A stretch of 64,000 bases of DNA, from the IMG/VR virus record IMGVR_UViG_3300024999_000038, positions 1 through 64,000 of that record; one strand, 5' to 3'. The position numbers were made by a program, and so were the translations under genes. The stretch comes from a virus. The notes under the pieces are model-generated. The model worked only from the letters and a program-made list of their open reading frames with translations. It did not search any database and was not told the DNA's origin. Shown here in pieces: positions 11,018 to 61,300 of the stretch (its first letter is position 1; each line of letters begins with the position of its first letter).

Positions 11018-11092
11018 TGGAGCCACTGATAGGACTTGAACCTACAACAAACTGATTACAGGTCAGTTGCTCTACCATTGAGCTACAGTGGC
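11018..11092 (-). tRNA. tRNA-Thr (anticodon UGU), CCA encoded
   Basis: Cloverleaf GCCACTG..GCTC-AATGGTA-GAGC..ACTGA-CCTGTAA-TCAGT..GTAGG-TTCAAGT-CCTAT-CAGTGGC-T-CCA. Confidence 0.95.
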
Positions 11093-29995: not shown

Positions 29996-30859
29996 ATGTT
30001 TTTGTTACTCCTTTCTAGGTACTGATTTTTTATTGGATTTGTACCTGTGATAATTGTAACATATTATAGGTGATTAAGTCAAGTATTTATTTTAGTATTT
30101 ATTATAGAAGAATTAGAATCAATTTTTCAAAATTAAGTTATATAATTTCTCAAGATCCAAATGATGAATATTCACAAAAATATTTTCATCAAATTTTAGA
30201 GAGTCGTATATGGGAGATAATTGTATCGAACTCAAATGTAAACTATACGCCCCCTATAGTAGAAGCAATATGATATAATAGATAAAAGTGTTGTCAGAGT
30301 AGGGATTAGAGGATTATTTTGTTATTGAGATTTATTGATGGATAATTATGCAGTTTATTAATTTTAGATGTGATAATTTTGTTCGATGGAATTGTAAGTG
30401 ATTTATTGATTTGGATTTTTAGATGAGAATTTAAGATTGATTATTGGAGATCATAGAGTATATTTTGTGGAATGTTTATGCCAGAGAATTGTTGTTGGAG
30501 TAGGGTTTTAAGGTGATTTTAGTATTATGGATTTATTGAGAGTATTATATAAAATAGATATATTTTATTAAAATTTTATGAATAATTTATTAAATTTATT
30601 TGACTTTTGGGTGGATTTATGAATGATATTTTGATAGTTGGGTGGTTAGAAATTGTTGTGTTGATTATGTTTTTGCGAAGAAAATACGAATGGGATTTTG
30701 AGATGGAATTTGAGATCAATGAAAATAATTTTAGATTTATTATATTTTAATATTGACATTTTTACGAAAGTGTGATTTGTTATTTTATTTTAGATTGGAA
30801 GAAATTTATTTAAAATTATTTTATGAAAACCCTGTATCGCAGTCGTAGCTTGGGTTTTG

Positions 30860-30895
30860 TGTCGAAGTTGATGTACTGTGTCGAATACTGTCGAA
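30860..30895 (+). promoter_or_regulatory. Three Spo0A boxes (TGTCGAA)
   Basis: Exact TGTCGAA at 30860, 30879 and 30889; further copies at 31246 and 45882. Confidence 0.65.
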
Positions 30896-31388
30896 TAAAA
30901 GGAGATAATGTTTGTAATCCATGCCCCACCTATCTATTATAGTTGGCATGGAAATTGAAAGTAAAGTCTTACAATGATTTTAGGTATATGTTTTACTTAT
31001 GACAAACTGAAAACATCATGGGCCGATGCTACCACAAACGCTACAACCTGCCTATAGGTTGATTCTTCCCATTTTTTGAATGTAACAAAAGAGGGATGTG
31101 TTACATTCGATGAGAAATGAGGGTTAGTTTACTATGCAAAATGATTTTGAAGAGCTTAGAAGGACTGTTTTGTGGATGAAATGAAAAGAAGAACCAGAAG
31201 AGGATAATGTCCTGGCATTGATACCTGCTGCACTTGATAATGATTTGTCGAATTGAATTTGATCGGCTGAAATGGATATGAATGAAGGAAAATGAGTTGA
31301 TCATTGGGTCTTGATTGCATTGTGCGTTATAACGCTCAAACTGTCGGATCTTATAACATGCACGAAATCTTTGAAGTATTAATAAATT

Positions 31389-31564
31389 ACATGCTATCAC
31401 ATTGCTACCATTACACTACCAAATCAATAGTTGTTTACTATCAACACAATACCACTATAATAACATCACACTATTATCATGCTATCTATGCACTATCCAA
31501 ACGCTACCAACATGATACCAAAATAATACCGTTATACTATCAATTAACTATCATAATGATACCA
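31389..31564 (+). repeat. Tandem array of 16 degenerate 11-bp units (nnnnR[C/A]TAYCA)
   Basis: acatgctatca-cattgctacca-ttacactacca-..-ttatactatca-attaactatca-taatgatacca, in unbroken 11-bp phase. Confidence 0.85.
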
Positions 31565-31627
31565 ATATATTTTATGAATTCTAACACCTAATACTCCATA
31601 TACCATGTTCCACAAATACAAAAATAA

Positions 31628-31643
31628 TGTTCTACGTGGAACA
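31628..31643. promoter_or_regulatory. parS-like palindrome
   Basis: TGTTCTACGTGGAACA, one mismatch from TGTTCCACGTGGAACA; TGTTCCAC half-sites at 31606 and 31663. Confidence 0.65.
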
Positions 31644-31933
31644 TATCAAAAATAATCCTCTATGTTCCACACTATTTTCCACAATCCCTTCCGGTAAATC
31701 CTCTTACCCTTCACCCATACAAATACACCAATACTACATTCCAACTCAATACAGACCATTCTAGAGCCTCTAATCACAATACAGTGCAATCATTTCCATG
31801 TACTAAATTTATCCCACTATGATGAATCGATAAATAAATTTATTTTATAAATCCCTTGAAAACCTATGTACATTACCCATGAATTTTGCTATAATAAGAT
31901 AAGAAATAAAAACATTGAAGGAGTTGCTTAAAC

Positions 31934-32245
31934 ATGATTTTTGCAGGAGTAAGAGAAACCACTCAACTGACCATTATTGACGGATACAGCAACAATAAAA
32001 CAGTCAATGGAGCACTGAAAGACCTTGCTAAAGAAGTTGAAAAATACAGCAAAATTGAAGCAGAAGCACTCAAGGATATGATCAAAGACAAATCAATTTC
32101 CAATATTCTAAACATAGACAATGGGAATGACTGCTATTACATAGAATGTATCGAAGTTTCCCAAGCAGCGAGAATGATAAACGATGAAGAAAACGAATAC
32201 AAAGACGCAAACTTTTACATAATGATAAGATTCATTAAGGACTGA
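31934..32245 (+). CDS. Hypothetical early protein
   Basis: Own promoter, RBS and terminator. Confidence 0.75.
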   Translation: MIFAGVRETTQLTIIDGYSNNKTVNGALKDLAKEVEKYSKIEAEALKDMIKDKSISNILNIDNGNDCYYIECIEVSQAARMINDEENEYKDANFYIMIRFIKD

Positions 32246-32600
32246 GAAGTCCTTTTTCTTTTTCCAATTAATCCATAACAAAATCATTATAACAGACCAC
32301 ACTGTATAACAGATTGATTATAACAGTATAACAATAACAGACTATTAAGCAGGGAACAGTCTATTTTACTTATCCTTAAACATTATACCTCTCACAAATC
32401 AAAACCTCTTATAATGCCCTTCTAGGGCTTATAAACGCTACATATCACACTAATTACATGTACTATTTTAACCCTATATAGTAGAAGCAATAAAATCACA
32501 CCTATAAAAATAAATATTAACTAACATGGTTTTTCCTATTGTTTCTGTGCTATAATATACATAGTAGATCAAATAAATTAAACAAAGGAGTTGCTTACAT

Positions 32601-33080
32601 ATGACTGCTACAGCTAACCTCTTGGGCTACACTGGTAAAGTAAATATCCTAGAAGAAACCACTACAGGTTACGAACTCGAACTTCTCCAAGGTGATCTAA
32701 AAGGAAAGAGAACATTCATTTCTAAAAATTCCAAAAATGAAACACTAACCATTTCAAACCAAAAATTCACTTCTAAAATCTCTTACATAGTAGACAAAGA
32801 ATATAACGAGGACACCAAAACAGAGCAAGTATACACCAGAAATTTTGAACTAACCATAACGGCATCAAGTGAAGAGATAGCAGGAGAAATTTGGGATAAC
32901 TGCTTCAAATACTTAGTAAAAAATTCTGACATAAATCTTGGTTGGGTAGGATGTCCTGGAACAGAGGATTTAGAAAATGGAAAATTTAGCTACACTGATT
33001 GCATAACAATATTTGACAAATCAGAATATGAAGAACTTAAGGATATATACAAAGAATGGAAGAAGTTGGGTAAGATATAA
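32601..33080 (+). CDS. Hypothetical early protein
   Basis: Own promoter, RBS and terminator. Confidence 0.75.
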   Translation: MTATANLLGYTGKVNILEETTTGYELELLQGDLKGKRTFISKNSKNETLTISNQKFTSKISYIVDKEYNEDTKTEQVYTRNFELTITASSEEIAGEIWDNCFKYLVKNSDINLGWVGCPGTEDLENGKFSYTDCITIFDKSEYEELKDIYKEWKKLGKI

Positions 33081-33394
33081 AAGTCTTACCTTTTTCTTTG
33101 TCAATTCTTCCATAACAAAACTATTATAACAGCATAACAATATACTTATAACAAATCAACTTAATTCTACAATATTAAAATAATTATAATTATTTGACAT
33201 ATATCATAAAATTTGATAACATAGAATAAATTATACAAATCTAGAGAAAGGAGAATTAAATTTGAATATTTTAGATTGTTTAGGTTGTAAATATATTGTA
33301 ATTGAAGGTTATTGTTTTGAAATGCAAATAGAAATATACAAACTAAAAACCAAATGTCCTAAATGCACTAGGCAATAAGGAGGAATTTTGAACT

Positions 33395-33826
33395 ATGTAT
33401 AAAACTATTACAACTTATGATAAAAATGGAGATTGGAATCATAAATATGTAATTGATAAAGAAGACGACAAATATTATTATTTTATTGATGGATTTCAAG
33501 GCGACGAATTAAGATTAGATAAAGAATTGGAAATTCTCCAGTATAATGGTAACAACAATTCATGGATAACTTTTAAAAATTGGTTAGATGTAAAAGAAAA
33601 ACCAACATTTAAAGTAGAGTTTAAAATGGTAAATGAAGATATAGAAGACATGCAAGAAAGAATTATATTAAAAAGTTACGAAAGAAAATATTATCACATT
33701 AAATTTGAATCTGAAAAACTTCGAGAAGTTATGCTAAAATTAACTGAAAAAATTAATGAACTAAGCGACGAGCTAGACATAGTTGGAGAAATGTTTGAAA
33801 ATAGTTTAAAATTTAATGAACAATAA
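33395..33826 (+). CDS. Hypothetical early protein
   Basis: AAGGAGG RBS; terminator follows. Confidence 0.7.
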   Translation: MYKTITTYDKNGDWNHKYVIDKEDDKYYYFIDGFQGDELRLDKELEILQYNGNNNSWITFKNWLDVKEKPTFKVEFKMVNEDIEDMQERIILKSYERKYYHIKFESEKLREVMLKLTEKINELSDELDIVGEMFENSLKFNEQ

Positions 33827-34229
33827 ACAAATTAGAGGCTCTAACGAGTCTCTTTTCTATTCCCATATAATCACACCACTTCCCACATTAAACCTCTTAC
33901 AATCAATCCTGAAGCATCTAATGCTATCATATAACTCTTATTACCTTTGCCTTATTGCCCTTATTATTTATCTATCCTCTGCTATCACTCACAAATTAAC
34001 CAAAAACAAATCATAAAATAAAATTTGACAATCCATCCTATAAATGTTATACTTATTGCCTAGAATAATTATATTTATTCTAAATAAATTGAAAGGAGAA
34101 AACATGCTAATAATGATTTATATCTATTCGTCCGGCTATGTGTAGCACTCTATTTATCTATTATCATTCAGCCACCAAACCACTGCAATAAACATAAAAA
34201 TAAATTAAAATGAAAGAGGTAAAATTAAA

Positions 34230-35258
34230 ATGATTAAATTACCCATAGCACTAGATTTAAATGCTAATCAATTAACCCATATTACCAACGTAAATAAAGA
34301 CAATAAAGAATCTTTTAACTTTGTTTGCCCACAATGTAAAACTACTTTAATGGTTAAAATAGGAGACATAAACGTCCATCATTTCGCTCATAAAAATCAA
34401 TGTGATATTAATTCAGAAACAATAATACATATATTGGCTAAAAAAGTGATAGCAGAAAATAATGAAATAGTTTTACCTATTTATAATCCAATTAGTCTTA
34501 AATGGCAACATGTTAAAAAAGATTATACATTAAGCGCAGTAGAATCTAGTTATGAGGATATTATTCCAGATGTTATAATAAATATAGACGATAGGCCCAT
34601 ATTTATTGAAGTTGCTTATAGTCACTTTATTGATAATGATAAACTTGAGAAGTTAAAAAGAATAAATATTGAAACATGGGAAATTGATTTGCGTAAAATA
34701 GATTTATTTGATTATGATAGCTTTAAAAATATACTATTAAACGAGATATATAATAAGCAATCTATAATAATTGATTATAAAAATTATGGCAAAGAATTAA
34801 TGAATGAATTAAAGATACTTAAAAAATCAAATATATTTTACAATGAATTATTAAATCAATATAAGCAAATTAAAAATGAAGTATTTATAAAAACTAAAAA
34901 ATTCACCTTATTAAATGGTGATAATTATCTAAGATTAGTTGATATGAAAGATAATAAAGAATATTGGTTAGTTATTAATGCATTACATAGAGATATGTTA
35001 TCATATGCATTTGTTGGTGCTTATAGTTTTTCAGATAAAAATATGAAATACAATAATTCTATTCATTATTCAATTGGCAAAAATAAATATTATTATCAAT
35101 CTGGATCAATTAAAGCAGAAGGACTTGGAAGTTTACACTGGGAATTAGAAAAACTATTGAATGGAAATAGAGTTAATTTAAAAAGCAATATTAAAAATGA
35201 TAAATTTATGTTATTCAGTACAATTCAAATAATTAAACCATTAAAGGAAGTAAAATAA
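34230..35258 (+). CDS. CoiA-like PD-(D/E)xK nuclease
   Basis: CPQC..HHFAH..SET..H..AK, IPDV..IFIEV..SH motifs. Confidence 0.75.
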   Translation: MIKLPIALDLNANQLTHITNVNKDNKESFNFVCPQCKTTLMVKIGDINVHHFAHKNQCDINSETIIHILAKKVIAENNEIVLPIYNPISLKWQHVKKDYTLSAVESSYEDIIPDVIINIDDRPIFIEVAYSHFIDNDKLEKLKRINIETWEIDLRKIDLFDYDSFKNILLNEIYNKQSIIIDYKNYGKELMNELKILKKSNIFYNELLNQYKQIKNEVFIKTKKFTLLNGDNYLRLVDMKDNKEYWLVINALHRDMLSYAFVGAYSFSDKNMKYNNSIHYSIGKNKYYYQSGSIKAEGLGSLHWELEKLLNGNRVNLKSNIKNDKFMLFSTIQIIKPLKEVK

Positions 35259-36512
35259 ATGAATATATTAAAATTAAGAGAATATGTCCTAACATCTAAT
35301 TCAATCAAAAATTATAAAATCCTTTGTGGTATCTTAGATATACCAGTTAAGGCCAGCACAAACAGTAAACAAGCACAATATAAGGAAATGGATAGATACT
35401 TTAAATATCATAAAGAGGGAAATAAATTTATTATTGATGAAATATACAATGAAATATTGCCTAAAGTTGATAATAGAGGTGGCGCACATAATGTCACAGA
35501 ATACACTAAATATATAGAAAACTTAATACTAGATTTATTAGTACAAGGAGGAAACAATAAGCAAGGATTCGGGAGAGTTTTCCTAAGTAAAAATCAACTC
35601 TTCAAAGAATTTAATATGATTAATGATAATTATGTTTTTTGTAAACGCAGAATATTAAAATTATCTAAATTTATGAATATTAATAAAGAAACTGTAGAAG
35701 AGTGGTATGATCTAAATGATGATATGCTTGAAAGAAATTTAAACCAAGCATTGAATAGTTTGGAAAATCAATCTTTAATAACGTGGGAAAAGGAGTTAAC
35801 TGTGGCTAAAGCAATGCCTCTAGCAGAAATTAAAAAAGATGGTACAGAAGTAGTTAAAAGAAAATATATAGACAAATATGATGAGGAGCAAATTGATTAT
35901 AAGTATCGCGCAGATGATGAAATACAATTAAATTATAGGGAAGGCACTGATAAGGAAAAAGCATTTATAATAAAGACAGAAAAGGAAATTTTTAAAGAAT
36001 TAGGTTGCGATAGCAAACAAAAGGTTATTAAATTTGGTTTATGGGAAACATTTAAAAATAAAGTAGATGATATAGTATTGAAAGAATTAAATATTGCTTT
36101 CTACTATAAATCATATAAAATCTTATTTAATGAAGAACACATATCAGAAGCAATTGATGATATTTATGGCAAATGTGAATTAACTGAAGAAGAGAAACAT
36201 GATAGTAAATATCTTATTAATAATGATGTAATAGACAGAACCATCACAAATGCAGAAAATAGACATGAGAAGGCAGTAAAAGAAAAATCTAAAATCATTG
36301 GCAGAATGAAAAATGATAAAGAAGGTAAAAGAACTAAAAGAAGGGCTGAGGAAAATTATATAGATGATAATATTGAATTAGGAAATAGTTTAATATTTAT
36401 AAATGCTACTAATATTAAGGATAAAGTAAAGAAAACTAAATTAGATGTTATTGTTGATATAGATATGGATGAAATATTAGATAAATTATTAAATGAAGAT
36501 GAAATAGAGTAA
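35259..36512 (+). CDS. Conserved phage protein, possibly replication-related
   Basis: 417 aa, KNYK.LC..SK.AQ.KE..RYF..G.KFII.EIY pattern; followed by a long inverted repeat. Confidence 0.55.
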   Translation: MNILKLREYVLTSNSIKNYKILCGILDIPVKASTNSKQAQYKEMDRYFKYHKEGNKFIIDEIYNEILPKVDNRGGAHNVTEYTKYIENLILDLLVQGGNNKQGFGRVFLSKNQLFKEFNMINDNYVFCKRRILKLSKFMNINKETVEEWYDLNDDMLERNLNQALNSLENQSLITWEKELTVAKAMPLAEIKKDGTEVVKRKYIDKYDEEQIDYKYRADDEIQLNYREGTDKEKAFIIKTEKEIFKELGCDSKQKVIKFGLWETFKNKVDDIVLKELNIAFYYKSYKILFNEEHISEAIDDIYGKCELTEEEKHDSKYLINNDVIDRTITNAENRHEKAVKEKSKIIGRMKNDKEGKRTKRRAEENYIDDNIELGNSLIFINATNIKDKVKKTKLDVIVDIDMDEILDKLLNEDEIE

Positions 36513-36826
36513 GAAATAAAATCGACCAATTTGAAGTGTCCATTATATTATAGTATATAAAGGGGATGTCTAATTGGTCGATTCTTATAATTTTATTATT
36601 ATTAATCAATCAATCAAAGAGAACCCAACGAAAGCAGGTGTAGCGGTTGAAGCGTCAACCTTGCTAAATATTCGCTATCGCTCATATTTAGGATTATTCT
36701 TTGCTTATCATTTTTCTTCTTTCTCTATTTAGAAACATAAAATAATAATTGCCATACGTTAAATATTTTGATATACTATCAATATCCACTAATTCCACTA
36801 ATTAAATATCAAAAGGAGGTTTCCCA

Positions 36827-37255
36827 ATGGCAAAACGAAGAACCAACCAAGACATGCAAAAAGCAGCAAACACTTGTCGCTTATTTCTCTTAGCAGACAA
36901 TAATCCTCATACAGCTTATGAGCAATACATAAAAGATCATATGCTTTCCGGTCAACCAATGCCTTATTATATCCAAGGTATTAAGGATTTTATCACAGCG
37001 TCAAAAATGCTACAACAAGATATCCTGGCAATCAGAAAAGAAAAAGAACGCTCAGAAAATCAATTAAATGAAAAGCAAACAGACTTAGAACTTATCAAAT
37101 CCTTAGATATTAAATTAGTAATGCAAGCTTATAAAACATCATCGGGAACCGCTAAACTAGAATTATGTAATTTAGCAAATATGATACACGCTAAAGACTT
37201 TACTGGTATTACGCAATCAGAAATCTATACTGCAAAGGAATTTCAATTAATTTAA
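36827..37255 (+). CDS. Hypothetical early protein
   Basis: TTGCCA-17-TATACT promoter, AGGAGG RBS. Confidence 0.75.
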   Translation: MAKRRTNQDMQKAANTCRLFLLADNNPHTAYEQYIKDHMLSGQPMPYYIQGIKDFITASKMLQQDILAIRKEKERSENQLNEKQTDLELIKSLDIKLVMQAYKTSSGTAKLELCNLANMIHAKDFTGITQSEIYTAKEFQLI

Positions 37256-37332
37256 AAAGAAAGAAGGCCACCAAAATGTTGGCATAGGTTTTTTTATTAA
37301 ATTAATCAAATACATATTAGGAGGTTGTTTAA

Positions 37333-37911
37333 ATGTTTATACATCCAGAACTTAAAACCACTGCAAAGGTTACATACAACATTGAATATACTGAAAAGGA
37401 TGAAGATTTCAAAGATGATTTTTCCAACGTAAAAAAAATCAATTGCAAGGACTTAGAGGAAATGACTAAGTATATGTTCCAACTCAGACAACGCAATATG
37501 TACAATATTAATCTTTATACATTAGTCGAAAATAATGGTCAATGGATTATGGAAGATCATGCACAACAATGTGAATTTTATAAAGATACTTTACAAGCTG
37601 AAAAGACTCACAAATATAACCGAGAATTAACTGAAAATATGGAGGAAATGCAGAAAGAAATAGACTTATATAAAAAATTCATTGCTCAGTATAATGCCAC
37701 AAAAGAATTCGAAAAATGGAAGAAGGAACAAACTGCTTTTACTTATTATTATAGACTGAGACCTCCCAGTATTGGTTGTCAACCAACAAAAGGAATGTTA
37801 GAAATGAATGGCGAAAAGATAATTCACAATGACAGAGAGTATTGGGGATCTTGCAATTATGATAGAGAATTGACTGATAAAGAACTTTATGAATATGACT
37901 TAGATAAATAA
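37333..37911 (+). CDS. Protein with C-terminal DarA_C-like (defence against restriction A) domain
   Basis: YYYRLRPPSIGCQP..YWG...Y.RELT..EL..YDL motif. Confidence 0.6.
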   Translation: MFIHPELKTTAKVTYNIEYTEKDEDFKDDFSNVKKINCKDLEEMTKYMFQLRQRNMYNINLYTLVENNGQWIMEDHAQQCEFYKDTLQAEKTHKYNRELTENMEEMQKEIDLYKKFIAQYNATKEFEKWKKEQTAFTYYYRLRPPSIGCQPTKGMLEMNGEKIIHNDREYWGSCNYDRELTDKELYEYDLDK

Positions 37912-38166
37912 AATATATTAGAGAACTAAATTAATTATTAGTTCTCTTTTCTTTTGTCTATGTTCTTACCCTCATATAATCCCTTCAGACCTTCCACGAT
38001 GTCATATAAGCTCTTATAAATCAAATCTGATATAATCCCACAACAAAAAGATAATAAGGCCACAAACAACGCTAATATAATTATTTATGTTTTGCTATTG
38101 TATTTATGTTACAAACGATTATAATTATAGGTAATTACATATAAAATTTAAAGGAGCTGGCACAAC

Positions 38167-38340
38167 ATGGACAACAAAGCATTAGACACCAGAAACGAGT
38201 TAAATTTTATCAAGGATTTTACAAGATCAACTCTTACCGGATTAGAAGTAAATAATAGCATAGAGGATTATGCAATAAAAAATTACATCAAAGAAGTTGA
38301 AAGAAGTATCGCGCTAATCAAAAAAGCAAATAATCTATAA
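38167..38340 (+). CDS. Small hypothetical early protein (57 aa)
   Basis: Hand translation; own promoter, AAGGAG RBS and terminator. Confidence 0.65.
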   Translation: MDNKALDTRNELNFIKDFTRSTLTGLEVNNSIEDYAIKNYIKEVERSIALIKKANNL

Positions 38341-38518
38341 GTCGGAAACGGCTTATTTTTTTTGCGCTTATATCCGGCATTTATGACGCAATCAATACTT
38401 TCAAACTCTTGTTTTAATGGGATAATTAATAAGTGTAAAATAATTGTTGACTAATTAGCATTCAGTGTGATAGAATACATTAACGGATTAAATAAGGAAA
38501 TGAAAGAGGTTATAACTT

Positions 38519-38737
38519 ATGAGAATGCATATAAACCGTGACAAGGAAATCGAGGAAAGAATTAATAATGAAATTGATGCTTGCAAAATGGCCTATAAAA
38601 TTCAGGACAATGAAGGTAATAGATTTGTTTTTGGCGGTATAGAAAATGGTTTTCCTTGGTATCGAACAAGAGGAGGAAGTAAACATATTTTTGATTTAAA
38701 TGGGTACGAAGTGTTAGAACAATATTGTAAATTATAA
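38519..38737 (+). CDS. Hypothetical early protein
   Basis: Own promoter and terminator. Confidence 0.7.
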   Translation: MRMHINRDKEIEERINNEIDACKMAYKIQDNEGNRFVFGGIENGFPWYRTRGGSKHIFDLNGYEVLEQYCKL

Positions 38738-39042
38738 TTAAGACTCTCAGGAGTCTTTTTTCTTTTCCTTAAACATCATACCCAATACTAATTAAAACCT
38801 CTCTAATGGCCTATTCTATAGCTCTGATAGTATCCGGGAATCCCTTGTGTATGTTTATTCTGTATCCCATAAACCGAAAATAAATATTCAAAAGTCATAT
38901 ACAAATATGTAAAAATTATGATACAATGAATTGAACGCTAATTTTAATTTATTGATATAGTGAATATAAATATAATTGTTGACGTTCAATAATAGAAATG
39001 CTATAATGCATTATCAGGTTATTTTAAGGAGGTTCATTACAT

Positions 39043-39450
39043 ATGAAGTCAATGTCTAAACCACAACAACGACGATATCTATCTTATCAACGTGATAACC
39101 GCACTGAAAAAGATTCTTACTACTCAAGTTCAGATATAGTGATTTTCAGACAATATGATAAAAGACTTAGTATACTAAAAAGTGATAATGTTTTTGTATT
39201 TGAGAATATAATGAAAGAATATTTTTTAGGGAATTACATTTATGACATTGATACATTTTGTGCTTACTTACTTTTAAACTATAAAAAGACACAAACAGGA
39301 CTAGTAAAAGTTATGGAAGAAATGAATGTATCAAAATATCATAGAGAAAAATTAGAGAGTTATTGCTTGGGGTTACAAGTAAGGTATAGATACGAAGTTA
39401 TAACCGCATCATTTACTAATGATTTGGATACAATCAATATTAAAATCTAA
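39043..39450 (+). CDS. Hypothetical early protein
   Basis: Own promoter and terminator. Confidence 0.7.
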   Translation: MKSMSKPQQRRYLSYQRDNRTEKDSYYSSSDIVIFRQYDKRLSILKSDNVFVFENIMKEYFLGNYIYDIDTFCAYLLLNYKKTQTGLVKVMEEMNVSKYHREKLESYCLGLQVRYRYEVITASFTNDLDTINIKI

Positions 39451-39699
39451 GAGCCTCTAAACAGGTTCTTTTTTTCTTTTCCGGTACTAATTGACCATGA
39501 ACAAATTTAAACCTCTTAAAGCGTCCATTCTGACTCTCTGAAACTAGCCTATAGCCTCATTCTACATTTCAATTTATAGAACCAAATGCCCATTTCATGG
39601 GTTGAGTATAAAGGGAAAATAATTATTTTTATTAACATGGTTTTTCTTATTGTTTCTATGCTATAATAAGGCATAAGCAAAAAGAAAGAAGGTTATTGT

Positions 39700-40236
39700 A
39701 TGAAAAAGGTTACACGTAGTTACTTCACTATTCGCCAAGTTGACATGGGCCACGGTTGGGTATCTTATGAAAAACAATTCTTAGGAGATATGAAGTTTAT
39801 CAATATCTCATACGTTGACTATGATCAAGATGATAATGAAGTTGGTTCTGGTAATGAAGACTTTAGCCTTGAAAGATACTTAAAAGTTATGGAAATCAAT
39901 CTTAATGAATTAGTCAGAAACAATGCACCAGTTAAACCAGAAGTTACCCAAACAACCTTTGTACAATACATAAATGCAAATAGATACAATCAAGTATTCA
40001 CTTCTGACATAGAAAAGTTTAGTTCTGAATTATTATCCATCATGATAGCTAAAGAAGGAGAAGTCAGAAGAACTGGGCAGGATTTCGGCGGCTGGAATTA
40101 TGAAGTAATAAACAATAGAATTCTAGTCCTCGAACTTGGTGCTTGGAGATATGGACAAAAAATTAAGTGGGATATGGAGAAAAATTGCATAGCTGATAGT
40201 AGAAAGAAAGAGTATAGAGAATTAATTAAGAAGTAG
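39700..40236 (+). CDS. Hypothetical early protein
   Basis: Own promoter and terminator. Confidence 0.7.
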   Translation: MKKVTRSYFTIRQVDMGHGWVSYEKQFLGDMKFINISYVDYDQDDNEVGSGNEDFSLERYLKVMEINLNELVRNNAPVKPEVTQTTFVQYINANRYNQVFTSDIEKFSSELLSIMIAKEGEVRRTGQDFGGWNYEVINNRILVLELGAWRYGQKIKWDMEKNCIADSRKKEYRELIKK

Positions 40237-40372
40237 AAATACTTCTTTTTCTTTGTCCCTGCTCCTATAATCCCAATACCCATGAATCCTATATTTGGTC
40301 TGGTTAAATTAGAGTAAAAAAATTAATTATTTTTACATTATATTCTATCTATGTTATAATCTCTAAAAGGAG

Positions 40373-40555
40373 GTGAAAAATAAAATGGACAATGATAAAT
40401 TAATTGATGTACTCTATTCCATCACGGCAAGCCTAGAAAGATTAAATTTAGAAATTGCACGAATAAATGAAAAAATCGAATTGAATTATGAAGAGCGCAA
40501 CCTATCAAAAGAAATTGAAAATATAAACAAAGTAATAAAAGAAATCAGTAAATAA
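40373..40555 (+). CDS. Small coiled-coil protein
   Basis: Own promoter, RBS and terminator. Confidence 0.6.
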   Translation: MKNKMDNDKLIDVLYSITASLERLNLEIARINEKIELNYEERNLSKEIENINKVIKEISK

Positions 40556-40713
40556 GAGTCTTACATAGACTCTTCTCTTTTTTATAGGGTAGCTCATACC
40601 TACCGGATCACAAATAAATATAAAATAATTTATAAAAACTTAACACAAATTAATAAATCTGTGTTATAATAAATCAAGTTCAAAAATACATAAAAAGAAA
40701 GTAGGTAATATAT

Positions 40714-40989
40714 ATGGTAGTTTTTATTCCAACTACTGAGGAATCCCCAATTTATAGTTATATTTTTGAAAATCCAAATGTTTATGAGGAATTTTTAGCA
40801 CCTACTATTTGCCGGATCATGAAAGGGAGAGAAAAATATCCACATTATGACCGGAATCGGCAATATAACACATTTTACAAAGTAGCAAAACAAATAGTTG
40901 AATACTACATGGCGAAACATGGTGAAATTCATGACATTAAAACTTTAGCTTGGGATCTAAACAATTACTGCCATGAAATATATGTTTAA
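40714..40989 (+). CDS. Hypothetical early protein
   Basis: Own promoter and terminator. Confidence 0.7.
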   Translation: MVVFIPTTEESPIYSYIFENPNVYEEFLAPTICRIMKGREKYPHYDRNRQYNTFYKVAKQIVEYYMAKHGEIHDIKTLAWDLNNYCHEIYV

Positions 40990-41265
40990 AATAAATTATG
41001 TGTAAAGGTTAGATAGATAATATCTAACCTTTATTTTTTGTCTAAAAAATGTCTCCCCGGTAGCAGCAGAGCAATTTTTAAAAATCTTGTGGGGTTGGCA
41101 CTTGTCATCAAATTACCTTTTAAGCCTTAAAATAACCCTTAGAAGCCACAAATGGCACTCTAAGGGCTTTATACTCTATACCATAGATAATCGAACCACT
41201 AGCAAAAACACAACCCCTTTAAACTTTATTAAAATATAAAATAATTATTCAATACCTATATACAA

Positions 41266-41403
41266 ATGTCTAAAAATCGTTATAAAACATTTGTTAATGG
41301 TTTTGGTGAAGCAACAAAAAGAAATATAACTTGTTCTGGATATGAAAGAGCAGAAAAACGTAATAGCAAAGCAATGTTATTGTTTGTAGGAGGTAAAAAT
41401 TAA
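41266..41403 (+). CDS. Small ORF without RBS, possibly a 5'-deleted cassette
   Basis: 45 aa ending at a standard cassette terminator; the ATG lies inside a promoter-like sequence. Confidence 0.35.
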   Translation: MSKNRYKTFVNGFGEATKRNITCSGYERAEKRNSKAMLLFVGGKN

Positions 41404-41520
41404 AGGGCTGAAAAGCTCTTTTTTCTTTGCTATCAATTCAAATATAATTATTGACCATTTTATATATTCTATGTTATAATTCATTAACGTCAAATTTAAG
41501 AAATCGAAGGAGTGCTACAT

Positions 41521-41673
41521 ATGAAATATGAAGTAACAAGATTATTCACTAAGGGGATATTCAAAGGAAAGACCCACACGGAAATTACCTCAGTAAAATT
41601 CGAGGTAGGATTCATTTGCAAGAACGCCATCGGTGGTAGCGACTATAAAATAATTTCCTGCAATCCAGTGTAA
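41521..41673 (+). CDS. Small hypothetical early protein (50 aa)
   Basis: Hand translation MKYEVTRLFTKGIFKG..; promoter and AAGGAG RBS. Confidence 0.65.
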   Translation: MKYEVTRLFTKGIFKGKTHTEITSVKFEVGFICKNAIGGSDYKIISCNPV

Positions 41674-41714
41674 ACATAAGGAAGGGTAAAACCTTCCTTT
41701 AATAATTTTAAGGA

Positions 41715-42071
41715 GTGGTAAACATGTTTAAACCAGTTACCAAAAAGCAAACTAATAAATTTCAAGAAAACTATGGTAAATTCATTTCTTCTCTTTTTGG
41801 CGTTGAAGTTGTTGGAGATACCAAAAAAGAAGCTGAGGAATATTTAGCAAATTTCATTCAATGGAATATGGAACCATTTCAGAAAATTTATCAATTTCAG
41901 AATCATCTTGCTATTCTAAAGCGCAGTAAGAATGCTGTAAATCAATACGAATATTCCAGAATAGAAAATGGTTTAGCACAGGGATCTACAATATTTAGTG
42001 CTGTAAGTGACAGAGCAGCAGAAACAAAAGGCAATGACTATTTCAGTCAATACTTAGATTGTATCAATTAA
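41715..42071 (+). CDS. Hypothetical early protein
   Basis: RBS and terminator. Confidence 0.7.
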   Translation: MVNMFKPVTKKQTNKFQENYGKFISSLFGVEVVGDTKKEAEEYLANFIQWNMEPFQKIYQFQNHLAILKRSKNAVNQYEYSRIENGLAQGSTIFSAVSDRAAETKGNDYFSQYLDCIN

Positions 42072-42250
42072 GGGCTAAATAAAATTTAGCTCTTTTTCTT
42101 TGTCCTGCTATAGTTTTACCCTAAACATATTCTGAAGCCTTAGAAGTGCTATTATGGGCCTTAAAATGCAAAATAATAATAGTTGACATAGTACCATTCA
42201 ATCCTTATAATACTAAGTAATTACATATTAATTTTTAGGAGGTCGAAACC

Positions 42251-42580
42251 ATGAACGAACTAAAAGAACTTGCTAAAAGTGCCATTGACCGCGAAGACTG
42301 GCAAGAACTTGAAAGACTAGTATTAAGGTTAAAAGATGAACAAAAAACACCTGAAATAAAATATGTCATTGCGGGGATCTACTCAGCCAGAACGACACCT
42401 AAAATTCACATAGCAAAATATGAAAATGGACATTATACTAAGTGCCAATGCCGATGTCAGGGAACACAAGGACTTCAAAAATGGGAATTAGAAGAATTTT
42501 TACTAAAAGGCAAACTTGAAAATTATAGATTTGGATTGACTGATATTACCATAGAAAAATGCAAAAAATGTTTTAAGTAA
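42251..42580 (+). CDS. Hypothetical early protein (Cys-containing)
   Basis: Consensus promoter 42183-42211; terminator. Confidence 0.75.
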   Translation: MNELKELAKSAIDREDWQELERLVLRLKDEQKTPEIKYVIAGIYSARTTPKIHIAKYENGHYTKCQCRCQGTQGLQKWELEEFLLKGKLENYRFGLTDITIEKCKKCFK

Positions 42581-42755
42581 GAGCTAGTTGATAGCTCTTT
42601 TTTCTTTGCTTATGCTATAGTTTTACCCTAGATACATTTAAACCATTTAGAAGTACCATTATGGGCCTTAAAATCTAATATAATTAATATTTGACGTTTG
42701 TATAATTACTATGGTATTATGTATCAGTAATAAATAAAATTGGAGGTTATAAAAT

Positions 42756-43235
42756 ATGAAAGCATTTGACTTTGTAAAAATCCAGAATATCGGCGTAGGT
42801 AAAATTCAAAGTATATACGATGGTTATGGGGCAACCATTAATATTTGTTATACAAATTATTATAGGGATCTATCAGAAGATACAGACATCGAACCATCTA
42901 CAGAAAAAGAATACATAGAATTTATCAAATTTATGGTTAAAGAGTTAACCGCGAAATCTAAAAATAAAAGGAGCGAGGCAGCACAATATAATAAAGATGT
43001 TGAAGGAGAAGCCACCAGGAGAAAAGGTAAGGTTAGTATAATTAATGGCAACTATGCTTTTGGGCTTTGTGAAAATTCAATATCTAGCTATCATAGAGGA
43101 TTACTGTCCGATGCTAAAAAAGCAAAGGAACTAAAAGAAAAATTGAAAAAGGAAATAGCATGGTATAAACACAGAGATAAATTAATTAAAGAGGCTGAGA
43201 AGGAAAGAAAGAATAAGGCAAAAAATGCAGGGTAA
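42756..43235 (+). CDS. Hypothetical early protein
   Basis: Own promoter and terminator. Confidence 0.7.
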   Translation: MKAFDFVKIQNIGVGKIQSIYDGYGATINICYTNYYRDLSEDTDIEPSTEKEYIEFIKFMVKELTAKSKNKRSEAAQYNKDVEGEATRRKGKVSIINGNYAFGLCENSISSYHRGLLSDAKKAKELKEKLKKEIAWYKHRDKLIKEAEKERKNKAKNAG

Positions 43236-43721
43236 ACCTCTAAAGACTAGAAATAAAATTCTAGTCTTTTTTATGTTCATTCAGCCGGATCAACTCATTT
43301 CCCCATTTCAATCATTCACAAACTAAAAATACACGCACAGAAACAGCCATTCTTGCCTTTAGAATCAATTGCCCTTTATAATCTTACCTTAATACATTTT
43401 AAACGTCTCAGAATCAAAATAGGGTTATTTGTAGCTATAGATCCCATGTAAATATAAAAATAATATTAAATAAATAGCTATACTGCGTATATGGTAGCAA
43501 TCAATAGATAATACCATATAATCAACTGTAAACAGGTTAAAACATGATTATTTGAGAATGTACAATATTATTTTGAATATGTTATACTTAAGAGTACCAT
43601 AAATACATAAATAATTTGAAAGGAGATAAAAGAGATTTTTATTAATATTTTCGGTTATACATAAATAGGTTATTATTGATAAAGGGTTATAAAATAAATT
43701 AATTACAAAAAAGAAAGTAGG

Positions 43722-44498
43722 ATGAAAAATATAAGTATTTCAATTAAAAATCATATTGGAGAAACAAATACCACGGGCTACGGCTCACTAATGACTGTTA
43801 TTAATTATATAGATTATAGAAATATTATTGTAAGATTTGATAAATCGGATTATGAAAAAAATACAAGTTACGAACAATTCAAAGATGGTAGAGTTAAAAG
43901 TCCATATTGCAAATCGGTACATGGTGTAGGATTTTTAGGGGAAGGTAATTATACAAGTAGAATGGGTGAAGAAAAGGCTCCTCAGTATGTAGCGTGGAAT
44001 AATATGTTACAAAGATGTTATTCCGCTAAATTCCAAGCAACAAGACCAACATACATAGGGTGTACAGTTTGTGAAGAGTGGTTAAATTATCAGAATTTCG
44101 CAAAATGGTATGACGAGAATTATTATGAGGTAGAAAGTAAAAGTCAGCGCGGAATGAATCTCGATAAAGATATATTAAAGAAAAATAATAAAGTATATTG
44201 TCCTGAATTTTGCGTTTATGTTCCAGACAGAATTAATTTATTGTTTTTAAAGAAAGATGCAAATCGAGGTAATTTGCCAATAGGTGTAACAACAGAAGGT
44301 AAAAAATATTCTTCTCATAGTGTTATTGATGGTAAAATTGAGCATTTTGGAAATTTTAAAACTCCAGAATTAGCTTTCAATGCTTATAAAAAGTTCAAAG
44401 AAAAATATATAAAACAGGTTGCCGATGAATATAAAAATAAAATACCAAAAATATTATATGATGCATTGTACAGATATAAAGTAGAAATCACGGATTAA
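43722..44498 (+). CDS. HNH-like homing endonuclease with AP2-like C-terminus
   Basis: W..ML.RCY..VCEEW..F..W..LDKDIL..Y.P..C.YVP..N; GNF.T.E.AF.AY. Confidence 0.75.
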   Translation: MKNISISIKNHIGETNTTGYGSLMTVINYIDYRNIIVRFDKSDYEKNTSYEQFKDGRVKSPYCKSVHGVGFLGEGNYTSRMGEEKAPQYVAWNNMLQRCYSAKFQATRPTYIGCTVCEEWLNYQNFAKWYDENYYEVESKSQRGMNLDKDILKKNNKVYCPEFCVYVPDRINLLFLKKDANRGNLPIGVTTEGKKYSSHSVIDGKIEHFGNFKTPELAFNAYKKFKEKYIKQVADEYKNKIPKILYDALYRYKVEITD

Positions 44499-44734
44499 AC
44501 AATTAAGAGGGTTTTCAGCCCTCTTTCCCTATATTCAACTAACCCCAATTAAATTCCATTCTAAGGTCACAAAACATAATCACACGTAGTCCTATACCTT
44601 TATAGATCCAAACGTCTTAAACTCTATCTGGTGTCCTTAAAATCAATTACACGGCATCTTCTATAATTTCATTTATAAGATTCCTTTCCTAAATATAAAT
44701 ATAAAATTTATTTTTATAAATGCCTAAAATGCTA

Positions 44735-44763
44735 TTGCAATTACTGTCAAGATGCTTTAAAAT
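44735..44763 (+). promoter_or_regulatory. sigmaA promoter of the long early operon
   Basis: TTGCAA-17-TAAAAT. Confidence 0.65.
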
Positions 44764-44769
44764 GAGTAC

Positions 44770-45300
44770 ATAAGAGGGAACAAAGAAAACCTCTTGAAGA
44801 ACTAGTCAAAGTCAATTATTCATTTGAATCTAAAAATAATTATACATAAAGGAGGGCAATAACCACAAAGTATCTTGTGGCGTGACTAGGAAAACAACCT
44901 AGCACGAATTCTGTAAAAAGAGTTGAGACGATCTTTGAAAACTGAATTAAGAGACTAGCCAGCCAACACTTGTCAAATAACATACATTAGAGTATTCTTT
45001 TAGAATATCCTCTGAGGGTTAGAATCAAGAAAGTGGTAAAAAATTCGAGTGCGATATGGGCTAGTATAAGCAAAAAAGAGAGAATTAACCAAAAACATTC
45101 TACTAAATCCCTTTAGTTTATCATTATTACAATTTAACTATAACAATTGCATTAAACATGCATAACAAAATTAAAATGTAGGTTGATTGTAATTTAATGT
45201 TAGATTAATTATACTTAGAACTAAAGGGATTAATTTTCCGCAAGGTGTGAGCTTATGACAAATGAGTTTAGACCTTGTGAAAAAATTTAAGAATGAAAGA
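44770..45300 (+). ncRNA. Structured leader RNA containing an rRNA-type boxA (44930-44946)
   Basis: No ORF; at least 6 stems; GATCTTTGAAAACTGAA matches the Firmicute rrn boxA. Confidence 0.6.
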
Positions 45301-45310
45301 GGTTATAATT

Positions 45311-45545
45311 ATGAAAAATTGTAAAACTGTTAACGGACTTGTAAACACGATCAAAAAAGGAGAAGTTGCATTATTGAAGGTGTGGGACATAATGGATGGT
45401 ATTGGCGCAGAAGGAAAAGGAGCATACTTAAATTTAGGTGAAGGGAAATTCAGAGGAAAATTGGTTATTAATTAGGGAATGGGTTGTAGATCAAGATGGT
45501 ATATGGTGCAGTGAAGACACAAAATACTCTAGATTTTATCAATAA
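45311..45545 (+). pseudogene. Small gene with an apparent +1 frameshift at ~45444
   Basis: Removing one G from GGG extends the ORF through SEENWLLIREWVVDQDGIWC..FYQ* up to the terminator. Confidence 0.4.
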
Positions 45546-45871
45546 CCTATCCCAATCAAAAAGACATTTCTTGGGAGTGTCTTTTCTCTATTGTATTAAA
45601 ATCTGATATGATAGAGGAAGGACATTTAAAGTCCTCAAAAAAGGAGAGTATTTTTAATGAACAAGACATCAAATTATTATGAGCAAGTCGGAGACAATCT
45701 AAAAGGTGGAGAGGCCACAAGAGCATACCGACAAGCGCAAAATCAACTAAACCCTTCTGAACCAAATTATTTAGAAAATGTCAAACGAATCCAAAACAAA
45801 ATTATCAAGTCACTATCTTAAAGTTTATTGGTCATTAGCAACAACAAAACATAAATAACAGCATAACAATT

Positions 45872-47254
45872 TTGTTGCTAGTGTCGAATCAATTTAAAGG
45901 AGTGGTAAAAATGTCTGAAGAAAAAGAAATTACCTACACCACTGAAAAACGAGATATTGGAACATTAGTGGAGCATATCGAAAAGCAATACTACACCGTG
46001 GGCAAACATCTTCAAAATTTTCTAGCCGACAAAAAGGAAGCTGAAGGCAAAGAACTAAAAACCCTTCGTGAATTTATGGAATCTCAACGTGGTTATGTTT
46101 GGGAAACTTGGAGAGCATCAAATTTAATTCAGACTGTCTTGCTTAAAAATCCTATCCCTGAAATAACAGTTTACAGAGCCGATGATAAATCACAGTTTCG
46201 CAAAACAGTCGATGGGCAACAAAGACTAACGTCAATTTACCTTTTCATTAATGATGGATTTAAGCTTGACATGAGTAAAACCATGTTTCCTAAATTCACA
46301 ATTGAAGGTGAGCAATTCAACGCTACTGAAACTCTTCAAGGCAAAACATTTTCCCAATTACCTGAACTATGGCAAGACGTTATTCGCGGTTATCAACTAC
46401 GAATAACAACTATGAACAATTGTAGCGAGGAAGATGCTGAAAAAGCATTCGTTCAAATGAATAGCGGTGCTAAAGGGCTGAAAGCTTCAGAAATTCGCAA
46501 AGCAGCAATGGGAACTAGTACACGAAAATTCTTTAGATCAATATTGGATTCTGATTGGGTATTACACGCACTGACCGCACTATCAGCAAAGGGCAACGCT
46601 GGAGACGAAATATTATCACAAGTCATAACATTAGTACATAACAATTGCCCTGTTGAGTTGTCAAAAGACAATATTGACAAGGTTATATATGGGTTCAGGG
46701 AATTAGGACTACCGGAAACCCTTGAGGATGACATGATAAATATCTCCAATTTTCTCAGCCAAGCAACAAATATCTGGATTGAGAACAAGAAGAAAGAAGA
46801 TGCAAAAGAGGGATCTAAGAAAGGAAAGCAGGTTAAAAATTATTCGACTTATCGCTTTACATGGTTAAATAAAACCAATACTGTGATGTTAGTGTATTCT
46901 GCTTATCAAGCAGTAAGAAATAATGTTGAAGTCGAAGAGTTCTCTGCATGGGCATACAACTTCTTTCAATTTCCTACAAAGGAGTATAAGGAGGGTTTAC
47001 AGGACAAAGCGATTGATTTAAAACGTGTTGAAATGCGTATGAGTGCAATTAATGTAGAATTGGGGAAACTAGGTTCTTTTGAACAAGTTCAAGAGGTTGA
47101 GGAAATCATTGAAGAACAATGGGAACAACCTCTGCAAGCTGAAAACCTCAAACCTGTCATAACACCAGACCAAGAAGAGTTGGGCGAAAGCGCAGAAAAC
47201 AAAGAAGAAGCAAAACTAATTCTAAGTATTGCAAATAATACTAATGTTGCCTGA
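45872..47254 (+). CDS. DUF262 (GmrS / ParB-Srx-like) domain protein with acidic tail (likely start 45911)
   Basis: QRGYVW..LI.TVL...PIP..DGQQRLTSI..F..MN.G..L motifs. Confidence 0.8.
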   Translation: MLLVSNQFKGVVKMSEEKEITYTTEKRDIGTLVEHIEKQYYTVGKHLQNFLADKKEAEGKELKTLREFMESQRGYVWETWRASNLIQTVLLKNPIPEITVYRADDKSQFRKTVDGQQRLTSIYLFINDGFKLDMSKTMFPKFTIEGEQFNATETLQGKTFSQLPELWQDVIRGYQLRITTMNNCSEEDAEKAFVQMNSGAKGLKASEIRKAAMGTSTRKFFRSILDSDWVLHALTALSAKGNAGDEILSQVITLVHNNCPVELSKDNIDKVIYGFRELGLPETLEDDMINISNFLSQATNIWIENKKKEDAKEGSKKGKQVKNYSTYRFTWLNKTNTVMLVYSAYQAVRNNVEVEEFSAWAYNFFQFPTKEYKEGLQDKAIDLKRVEMRMSAINVELGKLGSFEQVQEVEEIIEEQWEQPLQAENLKPVITPDQEELGESAENKEEAKLILSIANNTNVA

Positions 47255-58371: not shown

Positions 58372-61300
58372 ATGGACACTACAACATGTATCTCCGAAAT
58401 AAGAAACAAAATTGAGAAAGCAAGAATTAATGTGGCACAAGGAATGGATGAATATGAAGCTTTTAATGCGGTTTATGATTATATGTCTTTCTCACAGAAA
58501 TGTGGTCTATTAGAAAAGGAAGCTTTAAATATATTGTGGAGAGAGTTGCAAGAAGCAACAAATATTATTTAAAAATAGAAAGGAGAATTTTAATATGAAT
58601 AATTATTTTGTTGCTCTAGAATTACCTTCTGGTGGCAGTCTTGGATTTAATGTTGAAGCATATGGAGAACACGATGCTTATAGAAAAGTTATTATGTTTT
58701 TACCAGATGATTTAATTCAATTAGGCATAGTTCATCATATAGTGATTCCACAATGTAGGATTGATTGTGATTTTTTAAGAAAGGGAAATGATTAATATGA
58801 GAAGTGCAGAATCTTTAAAATTATTAGAAATTGGTGTTCTTAAAAAGGGATGTAAAGTAAAAATGAATGGTCTTAAAGGTTTTGATACATTTACAGAAAT
58901 TGATGATGCTTTTATTAAGAAAGCAAGACCAGGAGAATTAGAAGATGACTGGGTAGTGGTCGTAATTAATGGGCAAACATATGATTCAGCTTGGATAAGC
59001 GAAGTGGAAGAAACGATTAATATGACATGTAGTGAGTGTAAAAACAACTCAATAACAAATCCTAACCTTAAATTTATAACTTGTCATGATTGTTGTTTTG
59101 GAAAAACGTGTTTTGAATGTGATGAATGCAGAGAATGTGATGGTTATGTTATTAAATTTGAGAAGAAAGAAGGTTAATTAAAATGTATAAAGAAAATGAC
59201 AAAGTTATGATTACATGCAAAGAGATTAGTAGTAAAGATGAACTAGCATATATTGCTTCTAAAACTCCTTTTGGTGCGTATGAAGTAACATTATTAATGG
59301 ATCATGAACCAAGAAAGGCATTCGATCCTGTTAGAATATTTGGAACAGATCAAATTAGTCTTGCTACAGAACAGGAAATTACTGATGCTGTGAGAGAATG
59401 GGAAGAGAAGCATAATTATAAATTAGGAGGTATGATATAATATGAGCATAACCGGATGGGTTAATAAAGAAGATTTAACCTTTAAGGAATACAGCAGTCT
59501 ATGTCCAACATATGGGTTGTTTAAAGGAGTTAATTTTGAAAAGGTCAAATATTACAGGGACGAAGATGGTAAAATTTATGAATTAAGCTATTGCATAGAT
59601 GGTAGTATGAACGAAAGATTAGAAAAATTGAGAATCGAACAAAAGAAAAAAGAAATTATGAAGAGTTTTGGATTATAATAAGATGAAAGGATGATTGATT
59701 ATGAATTACAACAAACTTAAAGATGATATAATTATGGGTAAGGGTTTTAAAATGTTATGTAATGAATGTGGCAATGAAATTATTTTTCAACAAGAGTTAA
59801 CTCCTGAGTGCTATGACGATAAAAATATTCAAGTTTCTTTTAGAAGAAATGATATTAGTTTTGGTTTTATCTGTACTTGTGGCAATTCAGCATATGTGAG
59901 TGATTAGTGGTAATCAATGATCAATGATTATGTAGTTAAATTTGAGTAGAAAGAAGGATAATTATTGTGAATGATTGTTTTACATGTGAATTTGCAAAAA
60001 GAGATATACACAATAGGTTTGAAGATAGATGTTCTGGTTTTAGTAATTGTAGTTATTCTAAATTTGAGGGAAATATTAAACCAACTCTTAAACAATATCT
60101 TGAAGATATTCAAAGAAATATTTCTACATCTAAAATGGATAATACCTATAAGAACGGTTTTAATTTTGCTATTCAACTTATTGATGAGTGGGAAGCAACT
60201 GAATAAAATAACTATTGATCCTTTTAAGACAGAGAATAAAAATAAATTCTCTGTCTTTTTATTATTCTTATTGACTATATATTTATTTGTGATATAATTT
60301 AAATAGTAAAATAAATATTTGGAGGAATACATATGTCAAACGTAAGAAGAATTTATGGAAGATTGAATGATTACATTGGACTACAAAGGTCTATGATTCT
60401 AAAAGAACATAATGGAGAAATGAATATTTCCAAATCCTCTAATGGAGGTTTTCATTTATTCCTTACATCTAACAAAGGTTTTACCTATGGCTTTGATTTA
60501 AATGCGTTTAAACAAGCTACCGCAGATTATGAGCATTTACTAAACAAGAACGAAAATGAAAGAAAAACCTTTGTTGTTGAGGTTGAAAATGAAAGACTTA
60601 GAAAAGAACTTGAACATTGGGGATACTAGGAAACTGGTACTTTAAGGGATAGAAAGGAAATGATTAAAATGAGTTATAAACTATCAAAATATGAAGCAAT
60701 AGAGCAAGTGAAAAGACTTAGAATTGACGGTATATTATCATATATGCCTAATTTATATCCAACTTCTGAAACTCGTATCAAATGGGTAACAGAGTTTATG
60801 CTGTATCTTGAAAATGATTATTCAGGAAATCATAATGGACTTAGAGCTTGTACGGCAGAGTTCAACAGGCATTATTGGATACCAAAATATAAGAGTGATT
60901 GGAGTGAATTATAATGAACACATTTAGAGAATTCTATAATCATTCTGTTGATATGGTAAATTGTATACCAATGTCAAGTTTAAAAGATAAAGAAAAATTC
61001 AGAGATATGATAATGATACACTGTGTTAACTTTGCTAAACATTATGCAAAAGATATTAAATTCAAAAATGAAGCAGATGAGTTTTTGAATTATCAATTGA
61101 AATACAATAGACGTTGAAAGGAGAATACATAATGGATAAGTTCAAAATCATGAAAGAGGCATTAGAAAAAATATCAAATGCATGTGATGTTTTTGATATG
61201 ACAGGCAAAAGTGATTACGACTGTTTTGAAGAATGTATATACATTGCTTCAAAAGCATTGAGTCAAATAAAAGAAGAAAAACATTGCTTGGTTGATTATT

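Follow-up and report, generated by a model that had tools for sequence, protein, structure and literature searches.

The untranslated leader that opens the first long operon of an uncultured phage carries a motif that, to judge from its sequence, is an rRNA-type boxA, and this motif recurs in most related loci while the leaders around it diverge. We consider it probable that the leader resembles that of an rRNA (rrn) operon and recruits host NusB-S10, NusG, and NusA for processive transcription of the operon, independently of any N-type protein. Because the leader contains an exact copy of an rrn boxA, the phage probably borrows the antitermination machinery of its host.

The window, i.e. the whole 64-kb stretch analyzed here, is the first part of a 150,268-bp IMG/VR record (28.5% G+C; completeness, 71% by CheckV). 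Since related phage records span 178–230 kb, the virus is a jumbo-size phage of ~200 kb. Partial matches to the stretch were found exclusively in DNA runs from groundwater metagenomes, and none of the matching runs was an RNA run. Positions 1–31 kb hold minus-strand genes for portal, terminase, helicase, exonuclease, and methyltransferase proteins; amid these replication and packaging genes, also on the minus strand, are a skipping-rope RNA (9994–10073; RF02924, 70.8 bits) and a tRNA-Thr(UGU) gene (11018–11092). Small plus-strand genes occupy the sequence from ~31 kb onward. Just upstream of the leader lies an HNH endonuclease gene (43722–44498; phrog_953) with its own terminator, which looks like a mobile insertion because the relatives compared by blastn do not have it at the same position.

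The boxA motif and its conservation

The motif GATCTTTGAAAACTGAA (44930–44946, + strand; core, 44932–44943) lies ~160 nt into the predicted transcript, after three hairpins and 365 nt before the first ORF. A scan for the exact 17-mer in one genome per prokaryotic species matched at least 120 stretches. Among the matches listed, the bearers were mostly Paenibacillus, Bacillaceae, Lactobacillales, Veillonella, and Erysipelotrichaceae, with some from other phyla, and many of the matches lay at contig ends. Again among the matches listed, the 5′ end of 16S followed within 600 nt in 41 of 80 loci (median, 136 nt), 32 of the 80 were cut by contig ends, and seven had no 16S, so that, of the 48 loci open to assessment, 41 precede 16S. 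Rfam, applied to six loci, placed 16S 68–130 nt downstream on the same strand in five of them. In B. subtilis, the rrn boxA consensus, AUGAUCUUUGAAA, directly follows a small hairpin, and NMR has shown that it binds BsNusB (2026; PMC13753749). The phage boxA, ACGAUCUUUGAAA, matches 12 of the 13 positions of this consensus, bearing in mind that the boxA of the phage's own host may differ. The match to the 17-mer is not due to chance: base-composition arithmetic gives an estimate of ~1e-4 expected copies per 150 kb on both strands, and the whole 150-kb record contains no other intergenic + strand copy of the core with up to one mismatch. The identification of the motif as an rRNA-type boxA, put forward in an initial annotation made from the sequence alone, is borne out by the 17-nt identity to rrn leaders and by the agreement with the B. 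subtilis consensus.

We rejected the idea that the boxA is a captured fragment of a host rrn leader because the identity to rrn leaders stops with the 17-mer. The boxA does not allow a host to be named because the same 17-mer occurs in several phyla. Four unrelated contigs (L009, L032, L082, and L160) contain a boxA-like word followed by GAATAGTGCGGTATT, apparently upstream of promoter-like sequences; since such words, also found in Clostridium hominis, seem to lie upstream of promoters, we set them aside as a different element. In two further unrelated phage contigs, a boxA-like word directly follows the 3′ end of a tRNA (L007:6417 and L033:5016) and precedes a run of tRNA genes by a few hundred bases, like the boxA of rrn spacers.

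Related loci were found through a syntenic ParB/GmrSD_N-like gene (45872–47254 in the window), which yielded four viral and 43 metagenomic loci; the 25 with at least 3.2 kb of upstream sequence were used to count conservation, with T[CT]TTTGAAAA[CT]T as the search pattern. The boxA core was present in 20 of these 25 loci, 0.6–2.8 kb before the ParB-like gene and downstream of a consensus-like promoter. After near-identical flanks were collapsed, the boxA-bearing loci represented at least 14 leader types whose sequences on either side of the motif are hardly alike. Outside the positions covered by the search pattern, there is likewise an invariant G two bases ahead of the core and an AAT behind it; the phage variants read GA-, GC-, or GT-TCTTTGAAAA-C/T-T. 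Conservation in homologous leaders, on which the initial annotation had staked its proposal, is thus what the relatives display, in flanks that have diverged. When five related phage records were scanned in full, three contained exactly one copy and two contained none. No recognizable boxA was seen in L226, L241, L244, and L254, relatives with enough upstream sequence, and in the complete relative G001/L002, the expected position, following a hairpin, is occupied by no more than a degenerate GTTCTTTCTCAACTTAAT. With four or five relatives devoid of boxA, the downstream operon can apparently do without it. One of them (L226:2300–2800), which shares its promoter type and downstream first gene with the window but joins them by a different leader of ~400 nt, is a natural boxA-less comparison. 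Two other queries gave nothing: blastn of 44500–45320 had no match in phage and plasmid collections, and the 60-aa frame at 45293–45475, which contains the first ORF of the operon, retrieved no related loci.

Promoter, folded modules, and operon

The predicted promoter (TTGCAA-17-TAAAAT; 44735–44763, + strand), listed in the initial annotation, is of the sigmaA type, with a predicted transcription start near 44770. It matches the consensus at nine of 12 positions and is hence only moderate; at the equivalent place, the relatives have TTGACT/TTGACA-17-TATAAA/TTATAAT. An A/T-rich tract at 44692–44722 (+ strand) may be a UP-like element, and a ATATAAAATTT-type tract stands at an equal distance before the promoters of relatives, which is weak evidence because the genome contains only 28.5% G+C. 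From the start, ~540 nt are untranslated: no ORF of five or more codons preceded by a Shine–Dalgarno sequence exists in 44765–45310, which agrees with the ORF-free region of ~550 nt reported earlier, and the first such ORF begins at ATG 45311 (ribosome-binding site GAAAGAGG and ORF, 45295–45475, + strand; 54 aa, no known family).

Three hairpins described earlier in the 5′ part of the leader were all recovered in the sequence and in the minimum free energy (MFE) fold (all + strand). The first (44772–44795; AAGAGG/CCTCTT) has an A-rich loop; among type-1 relatives and in L215/L250, the loop varies and the stem is retained. The second (44863–44880) is formed by CCACAA and TTGTGG. The third (44882–44905) occupies the position of a boxB, 24 nt before boxA; in relatives, a one-sided change from C to T turns a pair into G-U, which pairs only in the + strand RNA, and in other leader types, this position is taken by a different hairpin. 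Between the first and second hairpins lies an orphan Shine–Dalgarno-like sequence, AAGGAGGG (44849–44856, + strand), with no start codon after it; type-1 and type-2 leaders retain its AAGGAGG, and it may act as a 5′ stabilizer. Many leader types, the window's type not among them, have yet another hairpin before boxA: in L220, L221, L224, L228, L231, L234, and L240, it lies ~30 nt after the predicted start and combines a conserved GGAAGYAGT loop with a covarying stem (e.g. CCTGCTA/TAGCAGT, CTTGCTA/TAGCGAG, and CCACTA/TAGTGG).

The leader folds better than shuffled sequences in both of its halves (z = −3.3 for 44768–45075 and −7.2 for 45068–45300), and no shuffle folded as well. The + strand folds better than the − strand (−67.5 versus −56.5 and −59.3 versus −41.3 kcal/mol), as expected for RNA structure with G-U pairs. 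We note that the leader is not the single RNA of ~530 nt that had been proposed but a chain of separable modules that relatives shuffle. As judged by blastn, module A (44755–45069) and module B (45068–45313) occur independently: L002 and L005 have B without A, and in L010, L249, and L247 a non-coding module C of ~200 nt and a small ORF are placed between A and B. Module A contains the start region, the three hairpins, the orphan AAGGAGG, boxA, and a 112-nt domain, D. Domain D (44954–45065, + strand) has four nested helix regions and is closed by ACTAGCC (44954–44960) and GGCTAGT (45059–45065). When five sequences, including the diverged L251, were analyzed with RNAalifold, six pairs of D still paired after changes on both sides, and three cells were broken (columns 48/96, 120/127, and 121/126) besides the gaps at the alignment ends. 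In module B, an outer helix (CATTC/GAATG) surrounds a long hairpin (45106–45231) and a second hairpin (45240–45279), the whole spanning 45097–45295 on the + strand; in 15 relatives, we counted 64 consensus pairs with many G-U/A-U exchanges and five pairs changed on both sides. Both the domain closed by ACTAGCC/GGCTAGT and the long stem thus fold as first described, and the expected covariation is present in D and B to the extent that pairs change on both sides, in very few independent lineages. The long hairpin behaves as a container with variable cargo. Its arms, AATCCCTTTAGT and ACTAAAGGGATT, enclose 220–565 extra bases in L218/L219, L222/L223, and L247 (enlarged hairpins at L218:2518–2896, L222:3698–4338, and L247:3010–3325, the insert of the last with several ATAACA words).

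A switch between two exclusive folds, in which TGACTAG in the third hairpin would pair with CTAGTCA at 44802, had been suggested as well. We reject it because the partner is not conserved even in relatives that are ~87% identical in this part of the leader, the closest of which read ACTTAGAAAAG or CACTTAAAAAG at its position. In the MFE fold of the window, 44801–44807 pairs with 45059–45065.

Rfam searches returned no match for 44765–45310 even at E values up to 10 (44400–45700 searched; put, EAR, ROOL, GOLLD, and riboswitches included), no match in the leader when the whole window was searched at gathering scores, and no family for the leaders of 10 relatives at gathering scores. Further downstream in two relatives, a few kilobases after the ParB-like gene, Twister-P5 ribozymes were found (RF02684; 58 and 54 bits; L216:9867–9931 and L226:8761–8825); Rfam found no twister ribozyme in the window. 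A hammerhead-like core, scoring below the Rfam gathering score, consists of CTGAnGAG, a short stem with TCTTTGAAAATT, and then CGAAA, and was seen in L216 (~7860–7900), L217, L220, L227, L236, L238, and L251.

As a speculation that we think unlikely, the operon head would be an 'RNA operon' built by the phage on the model of rrn: an rrn-like promoter and boxA, interchangeable folded RNAs matured from the leader, and a Nus complex that serves as a folding chaperone besides being an antiterminator. If this speculation were right, new classes of functional RNA would be represented by domain D, by module C, and by the long AUAACA-loop hairpin together with its variable cargo. A slightly less likely variant describes a miniature unit like an rRNA operon, in which D, C, and B, cut out at the helices that close them, would themselves be functional and the boxA complex would mainly be a co-transcriptional chaperone, helping the long-range closing helix to form as it does for the 16S leader-trailer helix. 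Consistent with such a unit, the MFE fold of most leader types has a domain that is closed by a long-range helix and starts 8–25 nt after boxA; the closing helix has undergone compensatory changes between the window and L251 and L239, and reads GAACTGAC/GTCAGTT in L216/L218 versus GAACTAGC/GCTAGTT in L222; and the modules are self-contained, shuffled, and, in the case of the long hairpin, loaded with variable cargo. This must be weighed against the lack of a match between any module and a known RNA family, against the very small number of independent lineages on which the covariation rests, and against the nature of the closing helices of the other leader types, which are MFE predictions only.

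The arrangement of genes changes at the leader. The 14 kb upstream (30500–44750) contain 19 terminator-like sites versus 4.5 expected and several sigmaA promoters matching the consensus at 11–12 of 12 positions, and form an array of promoter-gene-terminator cassettes that ends at the boxA leader. In the 19 kb downstream, the terminator-like sites drop to five versus 4.8 expected, and the next strong terminator (60226–60257) and the next strong promoter (60271–60298; both + strand) likely mark the end of the operon. The first long operon, ~15.5 kb in length, thus has the boxA at its head; the figure of more than 18 kb of co-oriented genes given in the initial annotation is corrected to this terminator-poor stretch. 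Inside the operon, the terminator-like hairpin after the first gene (45559–45585) is the only one. Noted before as a terminator, it is weak: it has three G-C pairs and a poor U tract, and its 3′ arm is common to an overlapping and more stable hairpin of 22 bp (45577–45625; the two together, 45559–45625, + strand). The hairpins that share this arm (region 45546–45640) form an attenuator-like pair of exclusive folds, whose 5′ arm, ATCAAAAAGACA, is the best-conserved piece among relatives. For the hairpins at 45560–45660, Rfam gave only weak matches at chance level, Phe_leader among them.

Proposed action of the leader

Taken together, we favor a mechanism in which the host RNA polymerase would transcribe the first long operon from the promoter and through the untranslated leader at 44735–45310, and the single-copy boxA, once present in the RNA ~160 nt from the start, would bind host NusB-S10, by analogy with rrn leaders and the early leader of T7. 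With NusG and NusA, NusB-S10 would convert the polymerase to a processive form resistant to termination, above all by Rho, and a phage N-like protein would not be needed. The modified polymerase could then cross 0.4 kb (up to ~1.4 kb in relatives) of untranslated, strongly folded modules, pass the weak terminator at 45559–45585, and continue through ~15 kb of small genes with untranslated hairpins between them; the boxA complex would thereby guard the lengthy leader RNA and the rest of the operon against premature termination. Transcripts of this kind, structured and untranslated over a long stretch and then dotted with untranslated intergenic hairpins, would be open to attack by Rho. Both the binding of Nus factors and their effect on termination are predicted here from the resemblance to rrn leaders.

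The search for factors encoded by the phage agrees with this mechanism. No homologues of NusB, NusG, or S10 were detected in the 150-kb record, and no N-like protein (at least four Arg per 18-aa window) was found among the ORFs of at least 35 aa on the + strand of 31–64 kb that start with ATG after a Shine–Dalgarno sequence. The earlier statement that no N-like protein is evident thus holds for 31–64 kb; a phage factor could be encoded elsewhere because the record is only 71% complete. A lambda-type nut site consists of boxA and then boxB, used with N; here the hairpin precedes boxA, and no Arg-rich protein was found. The leader agrees with the rrn type in the boxA sequence, in its position on the sense strand after a predicted promoter, in the upstream hairpin, and in conservation.

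Some observations weigh against antitermination by host Nus factors. The operon has one weak intrinsic terminator only, while rrn-type complexes act mainly against Rho; the promoter matches only nine of the 12 consensus positions; and four or five relatives have no boxA. Further, in B. subtilis, Rho is dispensable and direct evidence for rrn antitermination is lacking (PMC13753749).

It is improbable, to our minds, that the motif merely resembles boxA and is instead a site for a phage protein or a host RNase, or an operator at the level of DNA. The boxA-like words with GAATAGTGCGGTATT in the four unrelated contigs suggest that the word has other uses, and some relatives do not have the motif; against this stand the 17-nt identity to a genuine rrn boxA, the fixed orientation and the placement behind a promoter and hairpin that rrn leaders also show, and the occurrence of one copy, at the head of the operon. 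We give very little credence to a role as a decoy, in which leader RNA made early and in abundance would titrate NusB-S10 and lower the synthesis of host rRNA during takeover of the cell: an exact mimic of the rrn boxA behind an early sigmaA-type promoter, in a block of likely host-takeover genes, would suit this purpose, but a sponge would be expected to multiply its sites rather than to have one boxA per transcript and genome, and the position at the head of a long operon fits action in cis. Repression mediated by boxA, as documented for suhB in E. coli (PMC5725501), would have Nus factors lower translation of the first gene or promote termination, for feedback control; it is just as implausible here because the distance to the first ORF is large and variable (365 nt in the window and ~0.1–0.3 kb in the relatives read), whereas the cited survey sought such sites within 50 bp of the start codon (PMC5725501).

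Relation to known boxA systems

The phage leader has in common with rrn leaders an identical boxA sequence, the order of a hairpin and then boxA, a sigmaA-type promoter, and untranslated structured RNA enclosed by a long-range helix after boxA. It differs from them in the distance of boxA from the start (~160 nt versus ~40–60 nt in rrn), in what follows (small RNA domains and then ~30 protein genes, with no rRNA or tRNA), and in its flanking sequence, which has no similarity to any rrn leader. The closest phage parallel is T7, in which our check of the sequence located an exact E. coli boxA 63 nt after promoter A3, although the RefSeq record of T7 has no boxA annotation. As here, an exact rrn boxA stands in the leader of an early operon that is transcribed by the host polymerase with no N protein; in T7, promoters A1–A3 precede it, and the R0.3 RNase III site and gene 0.3 come after it. 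The requirement of T7 for Gp2 is altered when this boxA is mutated (PMC3709561). The T7 motif is of the E. coli type, GCTCTTTAACAA, with ~110 nt from boxA to gene 0.3, whereas the phage studied here, uncultured and of ~200 kb, has the boxA type common in Firmicutes in a modular, structured leader of 0.5–1.5 kb.

The nut sites of lambda likewise place a boxA and a hairpin in an early phage leader and bring about processive antitermination with host Nus factors, as predicted for the leader described here. In lambda, however, the order is boxA-spacer-boxB and a weakened boxA works with the N protein; here, the hairpin comes before boxA, as in rrn, the boxA has the full rrn consensus, and no Arg-rich N-like protein was found. 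The boxA of CRISPR arrays protects an untranslated transcript from Rho. In γ-proteobacteria, boxA is also present upstream of suhB and CRISPR operons (PMC13753749). These cases share with ours the use of boxA outside rRNA, for protection from Rho or for regulation, and differ in being cellular loci of proteobacteria with an E. coli-type consensus (GYTCTTTAANA).

Thus, boxA was already known from rrn operons, T7, lambda nut sites, and CRISPR arrays, and its use by a phage without N is documented for T7 in E. coli. What is new is the presence of the Firmicutes-common boxA in an uncultured jumbo-phage lineage, kept across 14 diverged leader types, together with three unclassified structured RNA modules from jumbo phages. 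On boxA and Nus factors outside the proteobacteria, the 2026 study of B. subtilis reported binding and noted no direct evidence of antitermination (PMC13753749). The phage leader and its terminator offer a compact natural cassette for testing boxA/Nus function. The exact boxA, kept while its surroundings diverge, constitutes independent evolutionary evidence that boxA has a function on transcripts other than rRNA.
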